A DNA stretch of 64,000 bases, taken from positions 1,984,001 through 2,048,000 of the forward strand of contig OZ246001.1 of the NCBI GenBank assembly GCA_965230295.1. Direction: 5' to 3'. A program made the position numbers and the translations under genes. The notes beneath the pieces are model-generated. The model searched no databases, had not been told where the DNA came from, and saw nothing but the letters and a program-made list of their open reading frames with translations. The stretch comes from Marinicella sp. GTDB lineage: Bacteria > Pseudomonadota > Gammaproteobacteria > Xanthomonadales > Marinicellaceae. This document shows positions 2,025-15,944 of the stretch, piece by piece. Each line of letters opens with the position of its first letter. Position 1 is the first letter of the stretch.

Positions 2025-3884
2025 TCATTCAAATGAATCCCTGAAAATCAGATCATTTTCGGCCAGCACTTCGATAACAGCTGGTTGGGTGGTGACTTGG
2101 AGGAGCCAGTCGGTGGAGGCGATTTGACCATCTTGGTCGACATCCAGATACAGGGCGGTGATCAAGTCGTAAATACCGGGTGGGATACTGGGATCTATTT
2201 GGAAGGATCGTTGTAGTGTGTTATTACCTGATAGAGTGATGGAAAAAGACACATCATTACCAGGATCTGAATAGTAGTTGATGCCATCAAACAAACTGGC
2301 GCCCAATAAAACAGGTCCAAAAGGGTGGGTGGAATCACTGGCATTGAACACCTCAAAATCGATGGTGAATGTTTCATTCACTGTGATGACGGGCACGTCG
2401 GTGCTGATGGAATCCAGGCGGATGGGGGTGCTGGCGTATTGATTGCGTTGACCTGCAGGGTTGTTACTGGCGTTGTAGTAATGATCGACAATGTCTGCAA
2501 AACTTTCGCCAGCTTGTGCTCTGAACTGTGTACCCCATTGTGACATGCCCCGGCCATGACCAAAACACCCCAGGCCAGCAGCCAAAGGATCTGCCAAACA
2601 GGTCCAGCCTGTCGCCGGGGAACCGACCGAACCATCGCCACAAGACAAATCGGCATTGGAACAGTTCAAACCGTCATTGGGGTCATCCCAACTGTTGTTT
2701 TGGGCCGAATATTCGGAGCGGGCCAACGCGCCATTTTGGTCCAGCATGATGCCGTTGGTGGCAATACCGGCATTGATGGTACTGGTAAAACCGGTGAATT
2801 CAAAGGCCTGACAACAAGGCCCGGCACAAATGTCGTAGCCTGAATAAGGTTGGTTGATGACATGCCAGGCGCCGTAAGATCGAAATGGGATGGTGCCTGC
2901 TTTTAAACTGTCTGGGTCCCAAGAAGAGATCCACTCATTATCCAGGCCGCGTTGCACGTAGGTTTCTAACGAGTAGACTTGACTGGTGACGCAATTGGAG
3001 CCACAACAAGTCCCGCCAGAACCATTGAAACCAACCCGTATGCTGGACGGAGGTTCCAGGTAGACGGCACCGGTTGATCGTTCTCTGCTGCTGATAAAGT
3101 CATCATGAATGTTTTCATGGTTGAATTTAGCACTCAGCCAATCGTGATCAATGTCACCGCCAAGAAGTCCAGTGAGTGGGTGCAGCAGGCTCTTTTCTTG
3201 CAGCCCTTGGCCCGGTTTTAAATCCATGACCATATGGACCTGAGCCTGGGTGTCGATGTCAGTCCAGCGTTGTGCTTGATAGCCTGGATGTTCAACCATG
3301 AGCGTGATGTTTTTGGGCAAGATTTCTGTGAAAACAAAAGCGCCCTGATGATCGGTAAACATTTGGGCATAAAATTCTCCACTGGAGATGATCACGGCCA
3401 CTTCTGTTAAAGGTTTTGCGGTCGTCTGATCGTAGAGGAAACCACACAGTTGAGCCTGGTCACAGAAAGATTTTGATTCAGTTTCTTGAGTCTTATCAAG
3501 CATGATTTGGGTTATCGGTATGTGTGAGTTGGCTGCTAAGTAGGTGTGCAGTGGTTGATAACCATCGGCGGAAACGGTCAGTACTTGTAAGTGCTTATCA
3601 GGCAAGACCTGAAAAAAATGATCGGTGGCCAACAACTCTTGTTGTTTGAGTTTAAGCACCTCATCGGGTAATTTTTGCCCGAGTTTAATCTGGTGCCATT
3701 GGTCAGGAGTCAGCTGTTCCTGGTTAATGGAATGGAGGGTGATTTTGGCATCCAGCGGCGCACCAGTATGACTGTCTCGCACAGTGAACTGAAACGCACT
3801 GCCAATGGCTGATTGACACCACAACAGTATGATCATGTACTTGATCAAAAGAGCGGTTTTTTGACGTTTTGTGCTGGGTTTCAT
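2025..3884 (-). CDS. Secreted SpoIID/LytB-domain protein with carboxypeptidase-regulatory-like domains and C-terminal DLIFRDSFE tail
   Basis: SLETYV..GL.NEW..SW..DSLKAG motif and GHGRGMSQWG motif; N-terminal signal peptide. Start is uncertain (3884 or 3896). Confidence 0.8.
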   Translation of the reverse strand: MKPSTKRQKTALLIKYMIILLWCQSAIGSAFQFTVRDSHTGAPLDAKITLHSINQEQLTPDQWHQIKLGQKLPDEVLKLKQQELLATDHFFQVLPDKHLQVLTVSADGYQPLHTYLAANSHIPITQIMLDKTQETESKSFCDQAQLCGFLYDQTTAKPLTEVAVIISSGEFYAQMFTDHQGAFVFTEILPKNITLMVEHPGYQAQRWTDIDTQAQVHMVMDLKPGQGLQEKSLLHPLTGLLGGDIDHDWLSAKFNHENIHDDFISSRERSTGAVYLEPPSSIRVGFNGSGGTCCGSNCVTSQVYSLETYVQRGLDNEWISSWDPDSLKAGTIPFRSYGAWHVINQPYSGYDICAGPCCQAFEFTGFTSTINAGIATNGIMLDQNGALARSEYSAQNNSWDDPNDGLNCSNADLSCGDGSVGSPATGWTCLADPLAAGLGCFGHGRGMSQWGTQFRAQAGESFADIVDHYYNASNNPAGQRNQYASTPIRLDSISTDVPVITVNETFTIDFEVFNASDSTHPFGPVLLGASLFDGINYYSDPGNDVSFSITLSGNNTLQRSFQIDPSIPPGIYDLITALYLDVDQDGQIASTDWLLQVTTQPAVIEVLAENDLIFRDSFE

Positions 3885-4001
3885 GATTGCAGTCAATATA
3901 CCACAAATGGGATATTGTCATTGCTGGCGAAACGTGGAAATCTCCTATGGCCTATCCAGATTGACGAGATTGCCGCGGTCGTCCCTCATGACTGTAATTT
4001 G

Positions 4002-9383: not shown

Positions 9384-9962
9384 ATGAACGAGATTGAAGT
9401 CGAATGTAATTGTGGCAGCATTCAAGGGAGAACCATGCCCGTAGACGCTGATTCCGGTACGCGATTGATTTGCTGCTGTGATGATTGTCAAAGGTATGCA
9501 AACTATTTAAACCATGAAAATTCTGTACTGGATCAATACGGGGGTACGGAAGTGTTTCAAATGCCAGTTTCATTTTTACAAATCACCAAAGGCACTGAGA
9601 AAGTCGCATGTATCCGATTAAGTTCAAAAGGTTTGTATCGCTGGTATGCCAGTTGTTGCTGTACCCCGATAGGAAATACCATGGGCTCCAAAGTACCATT
9701 TATTGGCCTCTTTCTTAGCTTTGTAAAAAACGCAGAACTCAGTGACAGTATTCTGGGAAAGAGTAAAGGCTACATCCACACCAAGTATGCGTTACAAGAT
9801 GTACCCAATGACCTAAAAGGCAATACATTCAAGCTGATCATCAGGAGCCTGGCAAAAATTATGGCCTGGAAAGTCAAAGGCCTGAGTCGGCCATCTGCCT
9901 TTTTTAATGATCAAGGTAAACCGGTAGCAACACCGAAAATTCTTAATTCTAAATCGGATTGA
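9384..9962 (+). CDS. DUF6151 family (GFA-like Cys/Zn) protein
   Basis: CxCG...CxCxDCQ...RWYASCCxTPIGNT pattern. Confidence 0.8.
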   Translation: MNEIEVECNCGSIQGRTMPVDADSGTRLICCCDDCQRYANYLNHENSVLDQYGGTEVFQMPVSFLQITKGTEKVACIRLSSKGLYRWYASCCCTPIGNTMGSKVPFIGLFLSFVKNAELSDSILGKSKGYIHTKYALQDVPNDLKGNTFKLIIRSLAKIMAWKVKGLSRPSAFFNDQGKPVATPKILNSKSD

Positions 9963-9989: not shown

Positions 9990-10610
9990 TCAATATTTCC
10001 TGAATTGCCCAACCAGAACACCTTGTATGGTCAGTTGTTCCGGGTGGTATTCCATGGGTTCCATTGCACTGTTTTCTGGAATCAGGCGGGTGGTCTGTTC
10101 ATCGATGTATTGGATGCGCTTGAGGGTGGTTTCCCAACCGTTGATCATGACTGCCACAATTTCATGGTTACGGGCCTGCTGAGTGGCTTTGATGACCACC
10201 CAGTCCTGATCCATGATGCCGACGTCTTGCATGGACTGGCCAGTGACTTTCAACACGAAATGATCATTACCGGATAACATGGCATTGATGTCTATGGTTT
10301 CATCATCAGTGACAGCTTCAATAGGCGAGCCTGCTGCGATGCACCCTAACACAGGCAAACCGACTGACTCTGGATGGATGGTCATACCCAAGCCCGATTG
10401 CTCACGGACTTGAACCAGTCTGATGCCTCGATTGGATCGATCACGCTGGATGTAGCCTTTTTCTTCCAGAGCTTTGAGTAAGCGGGAAATGTGCCCCATG
10501 GCTTTGATGTCCAACCCGGCGCCAATGTCGACCAATCTGGGTGGTTTTTGATGCTGTTCAATGTACGCAGCAATGAAATCGAGGGTGTCTTGTTCACGTG
10601 AAGTTAGCAT
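9990..10610 (-). CDS. lexA: SOS repressor LexA
   Basis: N-terminal winged HTH, Ala-Gly cleavage site (IAAGSPI), catalytic Ser (GQSM) and Lys (TLKR). Confidence 0.93.
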   Translation of the reverse strand: MLTSREQDTLDFIAAYIEQHQKPPRLVDIGAGLDIKAMGHISRLLKALEEKGYIQRDRSNRGIRLVQVREQSGLGMTIHPESVGLPVLGCIAAGSPIEAVTDDETIDINAMLSGNDHFVLKVTGQSMQDVGIMDQDWVVIKATQQARNHEIVAVMINGWETTLKRIQYIDEQTTRLIPENSAMEPMEYHPEQLTIQGVLVGQFRKY

Positions 10611-10703: not shown

Positions 10704-11042
10704 ATGAAAACACCCAGGGCCATAGCCATTGCTCAACTTGATGCTTACAACCGTTGTGATTTGGACGCCTTTTGTGCATTATTTGCAGAAGATGCCACTT
10801 TGCAAGATTTACCATCTGGCCAGCTGATTGCTGAGGGCATGGAAGAAATTCGTAACATGTACAAAAATCGCTTTGCCACACCAGGCTTGTCTTGTCGGGT
10901 GCATGCCACCAATGACATTGGAGACTTTGCCATCGACCGTGAAACAGTGTATGGCTTACCCAATGGTCAGGTTGATGTGGTGGCCATCTATGAAGTGAAA
11001 AACGAACTGATTCAACGCGTGTTTTTTATCCGTCAGGATTGA
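10704..11042 (+). CDS. SnoaL-like / NTF2-fold protein
   Basis: QLDAYN..DLDAF.A.FAED and IDRE.V motifs. Confidence 0.85.
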   Translation: MKTPRAIAIAQLDAYNRCDLDAFCALFAEDATLQDLPSGQLIAEGMEEIRNMYKNRFATPGLSCRVHATNDIGDFAIDRETVYGLPNGQVDVVAIYEVKNELIQRVFFIRQD

Positions 11043-11703
11043 CCCATTCACAGCTTGACTGATCAACAACAATGGGCTGCCCTTGCCACCATTTGTTTAA
11101 GCAGTTAAATAAAAATGATTGCAGCCGAGGTTGTGTTGACGGTTTTTCACAGGGCAGTAGAGGACAGGGGTCAAAGTGTTGATGCAGTTTTCTGATTGAT
11201 GAATTGGCCCATTCAGGGTGAAACTGAAAACCCAAAAGGTTCTTTTTCGCGGTAAACATCTGGTTTTGACAGACTTGTGATGTGGCCAGAACATCCATCA
11301 TTGAATTGGCCACTATTTCATCTTCATGCCATTGAGGTACCGAGAGTTCCTCAGAACCAAATGACACTGGATGCCAGCCTAACTCAGGTTTGATCATGGG
11401 TTTGACCTCACAGCCGAGGGCCACAGCCAGTAACTGTGCCCCCAAACAAATGCCCAGGATGGGTTTTTCTGCTGCCAGGAATTGTTTGATCAAAGCCAGT
11501 TCTGCAACCAGCCTAGGGTGATTGTTATTGGCTGACAGCGGGCCTCCCAAAAGCAGCAACGCAGCATAAGTTGAGGATGATTCTGGTAATGTGTCTGCAA
11601 AGCACCTGATGTCATATTTAAGTTTTGATTGCTGGGTCCAGTCCAGGATTCTACCTGGCCCTTCTGCTTGGTGATGTTGGATTATCAGCAGATCGACAGT
11701 CAT
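11026..11703 (-). CDS. Type 1 glutamine amidotransferase (GMP-synthase-like GATase)
   Basis: LGGP, GICLGAQ (catalytic Cys) and QFHPE (His-Glu). Confidence 0.9.
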   Translation of the reverse strand: MTVDLLIIQHHQAEGPGRILDWTQQSKLKYDIRCFADTLPESSSTYAALLLLGGPLSANNNHPRLVAELALIKQFLAAEKPILGICLGAQLLAVALGCEVKPMIKPELGWHPVSFGSEELSVPQWHEDEIVANSMMDVLATSQVCQNQMFTAKKNLLGFQFHPEWANSSIRKLHQHFDPCPLLPCEKPSTQPRLQSFLFNCLNKWWQGQPIVVDQSSCEWVNPDG

Positions 11704-11704
11704 T

Positions 11705-12382
11705 TTATTCCCTCAATTCATTGATTTCTAAATACAGCTCGTTGATGGCGGAATGAGGCAATTCCAGTTCATCAGCCAATTGAGTTCGTGCCACAAAAAC
11801 CTCACCTGAATGGATGGTAAGCAGTCGTGGTAATGGTTTTGTGCTGCTGACCGACAGGATGTGATCCGCCGCCGGTTTGCTGTCAATTAAACGAACATAA
11901 TAATGTGTTTTGTCATGTTTGTTGGAACTGATCAATTGATAGGACAGCTGGGATTTTGGTGACAAACCTTGCAACGACTGGTTGATGATTATGCTTTGAA
12001 CTTGCATGATTAACCCTTTGGCATGCAGGGTACCTCCTCGCTCAAAATGACCTCGGTAAAGGTTCACCTTGACCTTGAATCCTGGTTCAGTGATCTGGTT
12101 CAAATCAAATGGCTCTGGAACCAGGCTGATGAGATCAGTTGCATTCATCCATTGTTCAACGGCCTCTTCATCTGTACCGATGAATTTAACGGCAGCAATC
12201 ACTTGTTGGTCATGAGGGTTGTGGAACAACGGCAGGTGTGAAATATACAGTTGATTGGCACCTCCAAATAATAGCATGCCATGGGTACCGTGTTTGCTTT
12301 GATTTTCAGGATGCTCGGCCCAAGAGATTGAGGCCATAAACACCCACATGAAAAATATCATTTTGGATGAATTCAACATCAT
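11705..12382 (-). CDS. Secreted hypothetical protein with His-rich motifs
   Basis: Start overlaps the SMR stop (ATGA); signal peptide ending SISWA; HGTHGMLLFG, SHLPLFHNPHDQQ and GHFERGG motifs. Confidence 0.8.
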   Translation of the reverse strand: MMLNSSKMIFFMWVFMASISWAEHPENQSKHGTHGMLLFGGANQLYISHLPLFHNPHDQQVIAAVKFIGTDEEAVEQWMNATDLISLVPEPFDLNQITEPGFKVKVNLYRGHFERGGTLHAKGLIMQVQSIIINQSLQGLSPKSQLSYQLISSNKHDKTHYYVRLIDSKPAADHILSVSSTKPLPRLLTIHSGEVFVARTQLADELELPHSAINELYLEINELRE

Positions 12383-12696
12383 TGAACCTCCGTTTGATTG
12401 AATAAGAAAATACCCGCAACAATCAGCATAACAGCGAACCATGATTGAGTTGATAAATGATTCTGAAAATATGTATGCTGGATCAAGGCCGTACCCACCA
12501 GGCCAGAACTGGTCCATACCGCATAAGCAAATGTCAAAGGGACTGTTCTGATGGCAATGGCCAGGAAGTAAAAGCTGGCGATCATGGTCAATACAACCCA
12601 TGACAACAGCAACAATTTAGATGGGGCTTCGGCGTAAACTTTTAACAGATTAACCCAAATGATTTCAAACAGGGATGACAGGATCAGGAATTTCAT
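12379..12696 (-). CDS. gdx: SMR family exporter, Gdx/SugE-like
   Basis: 105 aa, four TM helices, membrane Glu in FEIIW, ASF and AYAVW motifs; GAGG RBS; upstream guanidine-II riboswitch. Confidence 0.8.
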   Translation of the reverse strand: MKFLILSSLFEIIWVNLLKVYAEAPSKLLLLSWVVLTMIASFYFLAIAIRTVPLTFAYAVWTSSGLVGTALIQHTYFQNHLSTQSWFAVMLIVAGIFLFNQTEVQ

Positions 12697-12720
12697 GGCT
12701 ACCTCGCAAAATATAAATAA

Positions 12721-12766
12721 TGCGGGGCCGTCCCCATTTGAATAAGAGCGGTCAGGTCGTCCTGAC
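12721..12766 (-). ncRNA. Guanidine-II (mini-ykkC) riboswitch
   Basis: Two hairpins with ACGR tetraloops, GUCAGG-ACGA-CCUGAC and UGGGG-ACGG-CCCCG, separated by a 14-nt linker, directly upstream of an SMR gene. Confidence 0.9.
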
Positions 12767-13035
12767 TTCTGTAGAGGCCGCCATTGTAATGGCAATCCAA
12801 ATCATTTTCAAGACTGGACCATTGTCCTGATTAATGAAAAGTTTAGATTGAATTAATGCATATATAACACAAATAAAATATACATATATGAAATAAAATA
12901 TTCACCCAAATAAAACAATAAATTAACTTGGCTTGACTATCATGGTACCCGTTCTGAGGACAAAACAAATAATCATTTCTTGGAACACACCCCCAACATT
13001 TGGTTGGGTTTTTTTAACTTATGAGAGAGTAAACC

Positions 13036-13494
13036 ATGAAAAATAAACTTAAAACCATCGCAGCCATTTCATCATTGTGTGTGGCCAGTGCATTCAGCCA
13101 AGCCATGGCCAAAGAACTGACAGAACAAGAAGATTTTGAGCTGGCATTGAAAGCATTGCCGGAAGTTGCTGATGATTTGGAAAATGGTCCGATGCAGAAA
13201 TCGACTGCGATCAAGATGAAGTGTTATGTTGATACCCCGGCCTATGACCTATATACCTACAACTACTGTGCCAGTGTCGGTGCTGCCCGTACCACCACAG
13301 CCGTGTTCAAGGTGGATAACGTGCCTGCGGGTTCCACCATCAATTGGACAAACAATAACTGCAGTTCTAATAACAGCCTTTGTTTTGTTCCTATCAGACA
13401 GTACCAAACCATCACGGTCAGTGCCACGGTGTTAAAGCCCAATGGGACATACTCCACTGTTTCAGCCACAGCTGAGTATGAAGGATTGTTTTGA
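13036..13494 (+). CDS. Secreted Cys-containing hypothetical protein
   Basis: Signal peptide, acidic pro-like segment, beta-rich domain with four Cys. Confidence 0.8.
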   Translation: MKNKLKTIAAISSLCVASAFSQAMAKELTEQEDFELALKALPEVADDLENGPMQKSTAIKMKCYVDTPAYDLYTYNYCASVGAARTTTAVFKVDNVPAGSTINWTNNNCSSNNSLCFVPIRQYQTITVSATVLKPNGTYSTVSATAEYEGLF

Positions 13495-13653: not shown

Positions 13654-14166
13654 TCAGCGGCGTTTAAACACCAGTTTTTCTTCTTTTATGCTTTGGTCAT
13701 TCATGCGCATGGCCAAGTAGGCATGCATTTCTTCGTCACTGATTTTGTAAAAGCTCAAACCGGAAAAATGAATGGCGTTTTCGGTAATTGACACCAGTTT
13801 AAAGTTGATGTGTTCTTCTTTGGTTTCCCAACTGACAAAATCAGCTGAGAAGTGCTTGACCAGTAGAGACAAACTGTTTTCCTGTTCAACAATCAACATC
13901 AACTCGTAAAAACTCACGCCTTTTTCTTCATCGAACAATTTAAACATACCCACCATAGAACCTGCGCTGGCAGGATTCCAGACTTCTTCAAATTGCTGGC
14001 CAAAAGCTGTACCAACCCAGGAACCAGTCAGCCATTGAACTTGGTCTATGGTGGCAGCAGGTCTGTTTTCAGGGTCGTCTAAGTGAAAGGTGTGTTCGGT
14101 TTTCTGTTGCTGTCCATAAGTCAAAGCAGACCACGTTAACAACAATAAACAAGTAATGATTTTCAT
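13654..14166 (-). CDS. DUF6265-like secreted protein
   Basis: WLTGSW.G, EEVW....GSMVGMF, FYE and KHF motifs. Confidence 0.78.
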   Translation of the reverse strand: MKIITCLLLLTWSALTYGQQQKTEHTFHLDDPENRPAATIDQVQWLTGSWVGTAFGQQFEEVWNPASAGSMVGMFKLFDEEKGVSFYELMLIVEQENSLSLLVKHFSADFVSWETKEEHINFKLVSITENAIHFSGLSFYKISDEEMHAYLAMRMNDQSIKEEKLVFKRR

Positions 14167-14741: not shown

Positions 14742-15944
14742 TTATTCAAACCCATCTTCGAAGATGGTGTCATTGGCCGGTGATCGGAAGGCTGCAATGA
14801 TAGGAGCAGTCAAATCCAAACTACGGGCATTGTCTCTTGAACCATCTATGCCCGAATCTAATCCATTGAATTGAACATCTGGATTTGAGAAATACTGTCT
14901 TCTCGTACATCCGCTTGCACATTGGGCCGAATAAGACATGACCGTTCGATATGACCCATTGTGGTAATGACCAAAAGACCATGGGTAGGAAGCAGATGCA
15001 GGTGTGCCGCCTACACTGGAATCCTCTGGATTGTGTTCTAAGCCCATGTTATGACCAAACTCATGAGCAAATGACAAGTTACCGACAGCGCAACTGCGCT
15101 TTGTAACCTGGAATGCCGAGCCAGAAAAACCGGGACCTGGACTCCTCATCACATATCCACGTCCACAACCACTCATAGAATTGACTAACAAAGAAACCAT
15201 ATCCGCACCGTAAGCTGTTCTTAAAGTTGCCACTGTACTGTCTGATCTAACCCAAGATAAATCAGCAGAAGAATCTCCGGTGTCATCATAGTCAATCAAA
15301 CCGGTATAAGTCATGGTACCTTCTGCATCTACGCCGCTGTTGGTAAAAGACAAATTCATTGCATCAACGGCAGCTTGAGCAGTGGCTTCAATGGCAGAAA
15401 CACCGCCAGCGGCGTCTCTGGCTTGAGGTGTATAAAGGACCATGACATCAAATTCAACGGTACCACCGAGCTGAACCGGTAAGTCTGAATCGGCATGCGT
15501 GCTGGTTGGTGCGGAATCATCACCTGCACAACCTGGAAATTCTTCCAAAGCCAATTCAGCTATGCGCATGGTGTTTCTGGCCGGTGATGTGAATTCAAAC
15601 ACGCCTGATTTGGTATATAAAGAACCTGCATAATAGCCATTCACAGAACTGATGATGAGTTGCTCTTGTGGCTGGCCTTTTAAGTGGCCTTGCCAGCTGA
15701 ATCGGTTTTTATTATGAAACTTCAGTTTCTCAAAAACCACCGAGGTGTTGATGCCATTGGGTAATTGGATATCAAATTGGCTGGTTTTGTTCAGTAGCAT
15801 TTCATGGTTCACCTTGACCAGCATGGCTGATCGCTCGGTCTGTTCAAGCTGTAAATGGTTGACCATGTCAATGGATCGAAATAAATTCTTTGCCGACACC
15901 CATTGTGTCGTGAATAGAATAACGGTCAGTGTTAAAAATTTCAT
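14742..15944 (-). CDS. Secreted reprolysin-like (M12) zinc metallopeptidase with C-terminal DTIFEDGFE tail
   Basis: HEFGHNMGLEH metzincin motif, TVMSY Met-turn, signal peptide and propeptide. Confidence 0.9.
   Translation of the reverse strand: MKFLTLTVILFTTQWVSAKNLFRSIDMVNHLQLEQTERSAMLVKVNHEMLLNKTSQFDIQLPNGINTSVVFEKLKFHNKNRFSWQGHLKGQPQEQLIISSVNGYYAGSLYTKSGVFEFTSPARNTMRIAELALEEFPGCAGDDSAPTSTHADSDLPVQLGGTVEFDVMVLYTPQARDAAGGVSAIEATAQAAVDAMNLSFTNSGVDAEGTMTYTGLIDYDDTGDSSADLSWVRSDSTVATLRTAYGADMVSLLVNSMSGCGRGYVMRSPGPGFSGSAFQVTKRSCAVGNLSFAHEFGHNMGLEHNPEDSSVGGTPASASYPWSFGHYHNGSYRTVMSYSAQCASGCTRRQYFSNPDVQFNGLDSGIDGSRDNARSLDLTAPIIAAFRSPANDTIFEDGFE

Follow-up and report, generated by a model that had tools for sequence, protein, structure and literature searches.

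Introduction

Guanidine riboswitches are evidence that free guanidine matters to bacteria. The sources and fates of guanidine are still only partly known (PMC12186494). In riboswitches of the guanidine-II class, two guanidinium ions drive a contact between the loops of the hairpins P1 and P2, and the ribosome-binding site opens as a result (PMC12186494, PMC5486947). In the guanidine-II sugE/gdx units of Proteobacteria, two hairpins with ACGR loops lie just 5' of a gene for a small multidrug resistance (SMR) transporter, with the Shine-Dalgarno (SD) sequence close behind P2. Guanidine riboswitches also control enzymes, namely those of the guanidine carboxylase/carboxyguanidine deiminase/allophanate hydrolase operons and the Ni-dependent GdmH (PMC12186494). 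Here, an operon with the same head as the sugE/gdx units is described in a 64-kb stretch of DNA from Marinicella sp. (contig OZ246001.1, positions 1,984,001 to 2,048,000; this whole stretch is hereafter called the window). It begins with a guanidine-II riboswitch and an SMR gene and continues with two further genes, one for a predicted exported protein, here called MID, and one for a stand-alone protein resembling class-I glutamine amidotransferases (GATases), here called GAT. The riboswitch and the SMR transporter are unremarkable members of kinds already known. The novelty lies in a two-gene cassette under guanidine-II control, in the unnamed MID family, whose fold has one earlier example, and in a long-linker architecture of the switch that goes with the cassette. 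The MID-GAT cassette is a strong comparative-genomics lead.

The riboswitch and the operon in the window

The operon comprises the following features, in the order of transcription.

12783..12811, minus strand: promoter-like candidate TTGAAA-17 nt-TACAAT, 10/12 consensus matches
12724..12768, minus strand: riboswitch aptamer, guanidine-II (mini-ykkC), Rfam RF01068
12696..12723, minus strand: expression platform, with SD GAGG at 12702-12705 and AUG at 12694-12696, from sequence
12379..12696, minus strand: SMR transporter, Gdx-like, 105 aa, PF00893 at 63.4 bits
11705..12382, minus strand: MID, predicted to be exported, 225 aa, signal-like segment, no Pfam or NCBIfam family
11026..11703, minus strand: GAT, stand-alone, class-I glutamine amidotransferase-like, 225 aa, PF00117 at 67.9 bits

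A covariance search with the Rfam mini-ykkC model, as an earlier note on this DNA had proposed, gave a match to RF01068 at 12724-12768 on the minus strand with 44.3 bits (gathering score 32) and an E-value of 1.5e-5, covering all 48 model positions. It is the sole Rfam match above gathering score in the 64-kb window and the sole RF01068 match in the 4,008,074-base genome, in which no guanidine-I element was found. P1 (12751-12766, GUCAGG-ACGA-CCUGAC) is followed by a 15-nt linker and P2 (12724-12735, GGGG-ACGG-CCCC), and both hairpins have the ACGR tetraloops and conserved G-C closing pairs that characterise the class. Loop and closing pairs together, GGACGRCC, are invariant across 20 aligned homologous leaders. 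P1 covaries in the same leaders: three pairs are changed on both sides, and none of 500 shuffles reached the observed score.

The AUG of the SMR gene lies 27 nt past the end of P2, with GAGG 5 nt ahead of it. Five of the six bases of the SD segment GCGAGG can pair with CCCCGC, which comprises the 3' strand of P2 and two more bases, and the SD of the window leader is probably masked by this strand. The minimum-free-energy fold of the leader contains another helix, in which 12774-12784 pairs with the SD/AUG region and encloses the aptamer; this helix was not relied on, as a transcript from the promoter-like site would begin within its 5' arm. Transcription from that site would start a few bases upstream of P1. 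Promoter-like sites number 5 in the region against 5.9 expected from shuffles, so TTGAAA-17-TACAAT is a candidate only.

The three genes are tightly packed. The ATG of MID shares ATGA with the SMR stop codon, and the ATG of GAT lies 1 nt past the MID stop. The 3' end of GAT runs 17 nt into a convergent SnoaL-like gene (10704-11042, plus strand), where the operon therefore ends. The earlier note had described twin ACGA/ACGG hairpins ahead of a Gdx-like SMR gene, an ATGA overlap and a 1-nt gap between the cistrons, a signal peptide and His motifs in the middle protein, and an intact Cys-His-Glu triad in the GATase, and this description was confirmed at each checkable point.

The SMR gene is the only one in its genome, as judged from a single PF00893 match. 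The membrane Glu11 of its product lies in FEIIW and is aligned to the Glu of FEVVW in the 6WK5 chain; the AYAVWT motif is aligned as well. Among solved structures, the transporter is closest to the chain shared by 6WK5, 6WK8 and 6WK9, presumably Gdx-Clo, with an E-value of 2.3e-10 versus 3.9e-8 for EmrE. The protein stays under all NCBIfam cut-offs (46.4 against 126 for the SugE equivalog, and slightly higher, 47.4, for EbrB). Because the equivalog scores are so far under the cut-off, the transporter is classed as Gdx-like and divergent, and guanidinium export is suggested by its family resemblance.

Recurrence of MID and GAT under guanidine-II switches

The genomic neighbourhoods of MID were analysed in the best 80 of 330 loci. 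Twin hairpins were defined as two ACGR loops, each on a stem of 4 bp or more and separated by 16-90 nt, on the same strand as MID and no more than 700 nt upstream of it. Such hairpins are present upstream of MID in 19 of the 80 loci; elsewhere, only 4 pairs occur in 1,303,792 bases on both strands. From this background rate about 0.2 would be expected upstream of MID, which corresponds to an enrichment of about a hundredfold. The 19 loci belong to Kangiella, Marinicella W31, three Pseudoalteromonas, a Cellvibrionaceae metagenome-assembled genome (MAG) and 13 Shewanella. The earlier note had named a rare linkage of the homologues to guanidine riboswitches as evidence that would speak against its proposal; the neighbourhood analysis shows that both MID and GAT recur under guanidine-II switches in other genomes.

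RF01068 reaches its gathering score in five of the 19 hairpin-bearing loci. The Rfam scan covered 69 MID loci (L002-L070), in which no other riboswitch class reached the gathering score, and L071-L081 were covered by a model built here. This RNA model, built from 20 MID-linked leaders, recovered three independent instances (L145, L149 and L084). In the other 61 MID loci it found nothing at E <= 1 except a weak antisense match inside the L017 aptamer. Five genomes were searched over their full length for RF01068, and in four of them the best match, or the only one, is at the MID locus.

GAT lies directly 3' of MID in 19 of the 80 loci, and the switch is present in 16 of these 19. The MID-GAT junctions are mostly overlaps of 4 nt or 1 nt. 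An SMR gene between switch and MID was seen only in the window and in loci L003, L005 and L011, and Kangiella and the Cellvibrionaceae MAG have switch-MID alone. In a MID tree of 66 rows, every switch- or GAT-linked MID falls within a single 22-row group (support 88/85); the subclades of this group are well supported, and MID identity between them is about 30-40%.

Some loci depart from the common layout. In Pseudoalteromonas sp. H105 (L047:3693-3959), the interval between switch and MID is about 275 nt long and holds only an 88-aa open reading frame (ORF). This ORF was considered as an SMR gene and rejected, as its product aligns to no SMR protein and matches no Pfam family; it may be the remnant of a lost SMR gene. 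In S. phaeophyticola (L018:4744-5281), the GAT match is split in two pieces, and in Pseudoalteromonas sp. HL-AS1 (L146:3998-4669) a replicon carries MID next to a LysR gene, with two 'hypothetical proteins' annotated in its place. Decay of the cassette is possible at both sites.

A long-linker form of the switch

A second survey took the RNA as its starting point. Across 148 Shewanella genomes, the RNA model gave 44 matches at E <= 0.001 in 38 genomes, and the loci of the 30 best of these 44 were analysed, leaving out 14 matches without a locus. At 24 of the 30, the switch lies ahead of MID-GAT without an SMR gene, about half of these being species already among the best 80 MID loci; all 24 switches are of the long-linker form (64-98 nt in total length). 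Five short-linker switches lie ahead of a canonical gdx gene. At L179 (207-1554, minus strand), a 62-aa ORF comes next after a short-linker switch, and behind it lie genes for a GAT homologue (216 aa) and for a transporter (154 aa) of the PACE/BTP 'chlorhexidine efflux' family; the junctions overlap, and MID is absent. In Shewanella sp. 10N.286.54.B9 (L009:2363-3774), LysR and PACE/BTP genes lie immediately 5' of switch-MID-GAT.

Long linkers of about 30-55 nt are found in 14 of the 19 switch-linked MID loci, those of Shewanella and the Cellvibrionaceae MAG, where the total switch length is 64-98 nt. The loci concerned are L006, L009, L012-L014, L017, L018, L020, L025, L029, L036, L037, L045 and L056 (at about 3740-3980 in each); the same form is seen at L154-L177. 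The linker forms a predicted hairpin with compensatory changes at four of four pairs. In minimum-free-energy folds of the Shewanella leaders, the 3' strand of P2 pairs with the SD of MID itself. Three of the long-linker switches scored 28.2, 21.2 and 19.4 bits with Rfam, under the gathering score. The Rfam threshold thus misses a putative structured-linker subclass of guanidine-II riboswitches, and for this reason censuses of the guanidine regulon undercount.

Modularity and genomic context

Switch, exporter and cassette occur in separable combinations. At the syntenic SnoaL/LexA site (L149:1064-1444) of G408, a genome of the same genus, there are a guanidine-II switch (43 bits) and an SMR gene (67% identity), and neither MID nor GAT; G408 is a natural strain with which to compare the cassette. 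Searches of 12 same-genus and 8 same-order genomes found no MID. In S. intestini, switch-gdx-SIMPL and switch-MID-GAT are separate units; the second switch (L084:140-1546, minus strand; 31.6 bits with Rfam, 29.1 with the model built here) is followed by a canonical gdx gene (108 aa) and then by SIMPL/DUF541. G408 and S. intestini thus hold the classical two-part form of the sugE/gdx units. A DUF3597 gene lies upstream of MID in 13 of the 80 loci.

Known guanidine-degrading enzymes were looked for in five switch-MID genomes with two Pfam queries, and no known route was detected. The urease alpha domain gave no match in any of the five. CT_C_D matched in three of them; the matching proteins are of about 240 aa, not long carboxylases, and an E. 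coli control matches too.

Several neighbours in the window are unrelated to the operon. They comprise genes for a DUF6151 protein (9384-9962) and LexA (9990-10610, minus strand), a secreted 152-aa protein without a family (13036-13494), a DUF6265 protein (13654-14166, minus strand) and a secreted reprolysin-like M12 metallopeptidase (14742-15944, minus strand).

MID, a predicted exported protein

MID begins with a hydrophobic, signal-like segment, MMLNSSKMIFFMWVFMASISWA, followed by EH, and residues 1-22 (12317-12382) are predicted to be its signal peptide. The clustered His motifs pointed out earlier are HGTHGM, SHLPLFHNPHD and RGHFERGG. No family was found for MID in Pfam or NCBIfam, and the same holds for 24 of 24 relatives, with no Pfam match better than E 0.012. 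A protein atlas search with MID returned only unnamed clusters, with best scores of 0.88 or less, and the RefSeq label is 'hypothetical protein'. The labels 'DUF2987 domain-containing' and 'acetoacetate decarboxylase' carried by two homologues were set aside, as no Pfam scan reproduced them.

The family is large. A word-indexed search gave 93 relatives, and a profile run against 1.84 billion representative sequences gave 1937 clusters at E <= 0.001, 721 of them at E <= 1e-30. The clusters come from several phyla and are nearly all single-domain proteins of 210-290 aa. Invariant or nearly invariant positions are H34, G35, M36, F39, S48, H49, P51, H54, P56, H57, Q60, P89, H112, F113, E114, G117, P170, D173 and Y217; the invariant ones are H34, M36, H49, H57, H112, E114, D173 and Y217. 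A signal peptide is present in nearly all MIDs of Gram-negative bacteria, and a His-rich stretch, for example AQHHHH, often comes after it; actinobacterial forms have no signal and a His-rich start. In two Pseudoduganella MIDs (L038 and L065), the N-terminus MTTLINRRAFLAAAGLTLAG resembles a twin-arginine (Tat) signal, and the others are of the Sec type. A Tat-like signal would fit the export of a folded, cofactor-loaded protein.

Two rare natural fusions were seen in the profile search. One joins an N-terminal EamA (DMT transporter) domain to MID (P0346, 525 aa, on two contigs), and the other joins MID to a C-terminal cupredoxin domain with HCDIHPFM (P0322, 356 aa, a cluster of three). A separate homologue search restricted to longer proteins gave no fused MID forms.

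An AlphaFold2 model built on the 93-row alignment (pLDDT 91.1, pTM 0.83) is mostly beta. Its only solved relative is the C-terminal domain of 6EBN: VIA-align gave Z 16.3 over 205 residues with a root-mean-square deviation of 8.8, the next chain having Z 4.7, and Foldseek gave an E-value of 9e-7. Sequence homology is also detectable, since hmmsearch with a profile built from 93 sequences matched residues 716-857 of 6EBN among the PDB sequences at E 4.6e-5.

MID is probably a periplasmic (exported) metalloprotein. This assignment is supported by the invariant H34, H49, H57, H112, E114 and D173, the His-rich stretches behind the signal, the Tat-like signals and the cupredoxin fusion. Because so many of its invariant residues are polar, MID is probably also an enzyme.

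GAT, a stand-alone amidotransferase-like protein

GAT matches PF00117 well above the cut-off of 22.8 bits. Its predicted triad consists of C86 in ICLGAQ and of H162 and E164 in QFHPEW; the three residues are invariant in 21 and in 69 aligned members of the subfamily. The closest solved chains, 9XFS, 3M3P, 3L7N and 1O1Y, are uncharacterised stand-alone GATases. GAT has neither a signal peptide nor a fused synthase domain, and its sole conserved neighbour, MID, has a signal peptide. A complex prediction for GAT with mature MID gave a score of 0.00 and no verdict, and was not used as evidence either way. The subfamily is rare: at E <= 1e-25 it was found in 2 of 400 sampled genomes of the class, and the second carrier, L144, is truncated at a contig end.

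Proposed mechanism

When guanidine is scarce, the first cistron would have its ribosome-binding site masked, probably by the 3' strand of P2. According to the class model, two guanidinium ions would then let the ACGA loop of P1 and the ACGG loop of P2 kiss, thereby fixing P2 and freeing the SD of the window RNA. The SMR gene would be translated, and ribosomes would reach MID by way of the ATGA overlap and GAT by crossing the 1-nt gap. As the family resemblance suggests, the SMR dimer would export guanidinium to the periplasm. MID would also be exported and be cleaved after Ala22, and its invariant His, Glu and Asp side chains would hold a divalent metal. In the periplasm, it may act on the exported guanidinium or on a small guanidino compound, most likely by hydrolysis and otherwise by transformation or capture; this is the weakest step of the scheme. 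GAT would stay in the cytoplasm, where Cys86-His162-Glu164 may break a C-N bond, the substrate being either glutamine or an amide or amidine derived from guanidine. The adjacency of the SMR gene, the EamA fusion and the PACE genes near the cassette (L009 and L179) support a role of MID as a periplasmic partner of an exporter.

In its full form, this scheme would make MID the founder of a new enzyme family, exported and dependent on metal, whose members break down or convert guanidinium or some small guanidino compound in the periplasm, at the outer face of a Gdx, DMT or PACE exporter; the co-transcribed GATase-like Cys hydrolase would supply the cytoplasmic half. It would be a third bacterial guanidine route, beside the carboxylase pathway and the Ni-guanidinase, marked by the long-linker guanidine-II architecture. 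We consider this full form unlikely as it stands. The narrower claim, that MID carries out periplasmic metalloenzyme chemistry on guanidine, is tentative and rather doubtful.

Several observations limit the link of MID and GAT to guanidine. In the window, the switch acts on the first cistron, the SMR gene, and guanidine control of MID and GAT would follow from the gene overlaps; both genes also have SD-like sequences of their own, GGAGG and GAGGGA. The RNA model was trained on MID-linked leaders, and its ranking of the Shewanella matches favours such leaders. The switch-linked lineages are kin: with the 13 to 24 Shewanella counted as one, there are about five lineages and probably one or two origins. 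In 16 of the 80 loci, MID lies in an operon with an NADPH oxidoreductase gene (ADH_N_2/ADH_zinc_N) and a divergent LysR gene (L004, L008, L016, L026, L044, L049, L050, L052, L067, L070, L071, L074, L077, L079, L080 and L081). The hosts are Oxalobacteraceae, Xanthomonadales-like genomes and a gammaproteobacterial MAG. These operons include all three GAT-bearing loci without a switch (L004, L008 and L052), with a cupin gene between MID and GAT in L008. Among 54 actinobacteria-like MID loci from metagenomes, GAT is adjacent in one and SMR in none, and the 40 scanned with Rfam (L129-L142 were left out) gave no match. Relatives of GAT with 36-39% identity are common in Pseudomonas (P0126, P0133, P0142 and others), and no Pseudomonas is found among the best 80 MID loci.

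The distribution of conserved residues points in the same direction. The invariant residues of MID are the same in the switch-linked clade and in the rest of the family, apart from D93 and F67. Because they are the same in clades without the switch and in those under LysR, the biochemical activity of MID is probably general across the family, and its tie to guanidine would come from regulation alone, in one gammaproteobacterial subfamily. Furthermore, since MID is predicted to be exported and GAT to be cytoplasmic, a joint reaction or a single complex would be excluded. Of the new route for guanidine or a guanidino compound that the earlier note proposed, the repeated linkage of both families to the switch is what stands; the separate compartments and the residues shared with switch-less clades weaken the case for the rest.

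Alternative explanations

One alternative is a general detoxification or redox-metal module of envelope and cytoplasm, composed of MID with GAT, whose substrate is not guanidine. In marine Gammaproteobacteria, the switch would have been acquired since guanidine accompanies the real stress, or for co-expression with the exporter. Such a module is possible, although on the unlikely side. It would account for family-wide invariant residues that are identical inside and outside the switch-linked clade, for the LysR/oxidoreductase-MID operons, three of which continue to GAT and one of these via a cupin gene, for the MID-cupredoxin fusion and the Tat-like signals at two loci, and for the spread of the 1937 representative clusters over several phyla, most of them without any switch. 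However, it does not lead one to expect a switch kept directly on the MID ribosome-binding site while MID identity between subclades has fallen to about 30-40%, nor a MID locus that is the best or only guanidine-II match in four of five whole genomes, nor GAT behind a switch where MID is absent. A further, improbable alternative concerns the ligand: the MID-GAT switch, above all in its long-linker form, would sense a substituted guanidine (methylguanidine, aminoguanidine or agmatine) in vivo, and the proteins would handle that compound. The guanidine-II pocket has a side opening, crystal structures are described with all three of these compounds, and the affinities of methylguanidine and aminoguanidine are cited as within fourfold of that of guanidine (PMC5486947). 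Consistently, the MID-linked Shewanella switches have a distinct architecture with a covarying linker hairpin, whereas the gdx-linked ones are short-linker. However, the pocket nucleotides GGACGRCC are invariant in all 20 aligned leaders, and the window switch is short, canonical and orthologous to the SMR-only switch of the congener.

Class-I GATase subunits that stand alone normally have a partner. MID might therefore be the synthase partner of GAT in a glutamine-dependent amidotransferase like HisH-HisF or PabA-PabB, and the 4-nt and 1-nt MID-GAT overlaps in most loci are a pattern common for complex subunits. This pairing is very improbable, however: nearly all Gram-negative MIDs have a signal peptide and GAT has none, MID occurs without GAT in 61 of the 80 loci, and GAT is found without MID. 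Equally improbable is an operon formed by accident, with MID-GAT having landed 3' of an existing switch-SMR unit and having no functional tie to guanidine. The single site in the window could suggest this, as the congener G408 has only switch-SMR there and MID was not found in the same-genus and same-order genomes searched. However, an accident would not be repeated in 24 Shewanella genomes with switch-MID-GAT and no SMR gene or in the switch-MID units of Kangiella and the Cellvibrionaceae MAG, nor would it give 19 hairpin pairs upstream of MID where about 0.2 are expected. On the comparative sequence evidence, the balance leans towards MID and GAT being real members of the guanidine response, and not passengers.

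Comparison with known systems

Full-text literature searches tied neither the MID nor the GAT family to guanidine metabolism, as the earlier note had supposed, although PF00117 may already be counted among the gene associations of the guanidine riboswitch classes in Supplementary Table S4 of PMC7736828; nor did they tie PACE transporters to guanidine riboswitches. The available parts of a 2025 review (PMC12186494), of a review of orphan riboswitches and of the guanidine-IV paper name no such genes.

GAT shares a length of about 210-250 aa, an N-terminal QHHxAEGxG and the Cys-His-Glu triad with GuaA-like stand-alone GATases (9XFS, 3M3P, 3L7N and 1O1Y/TM1158; PRK07053 and PRK06490). It differs from them in that it falls under the NCBIfam equivalog cut-offs (109.8 against 250) and belongs to a rare, guanidine-II-linked subfamily. 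With the gamma-glutamyl hydrolases of the PuuD/peptidase C26 group it shares the fold and the nucleophile elbow, PF07722 matching GAT residues 62-106. However, the likeness to this group is confined to the elbow region, the NCBIfam PuuD score is 17.5 against 266, and the operon has no gamma-glutamyl ligase gene.

The fold predicted for MID has been seen in 6EBN, the structure of PcncAAAD from Psilocybe cubensis, whose C-terminal domain is described as a non-catalytic double beta-barrel with a Ca/Na site formed by Glu824, Asp825 and the backbone of Met930 (PMC13062060). The bacterial motifs are only partly kept in the aligned stretch: HTFLLHG takes the place of HGMLLFG, and there is no conservation at RGHFERGG. 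Besides the predicted fold and the detectable sequence homology, there are clear differences. The fungal domain is an appendage fused to a pyridoxal phosphate-dependent decarboxylase; its site B, with Glu824 and Asp825 between the barrels, falls in a variable loop of the bacterial profile, whereas the invariant His, Glu and Asp residues of MID lie elsewhere.

The guanidine catabolic operons and GdmH resemble the cassette in placing enzymes under a guanidine riboswitch, and GdmH is a metal-dependent hydrolase (PMC12186494). However, there is no homology between these enzymes and MID or GAT; MID has another fold and is exported. The riboswitch serves as a natural label, providing a physiological signal for a protein pair without a function, namely MID with its approximately 1,900 clusters and a rare stand-alone amidotransferase subfamily. 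Because no urease alpha domain or long carboxylase was found with the queries used, the cassette may be the only guanidine response of its carriers besides export. The closest known systems remain the guanidine-II sugE/gdx units, from which the window differs by two more cistrons after the SMR gene, and Shewanella by a switch that controls these two cistrons without the SMR gene.

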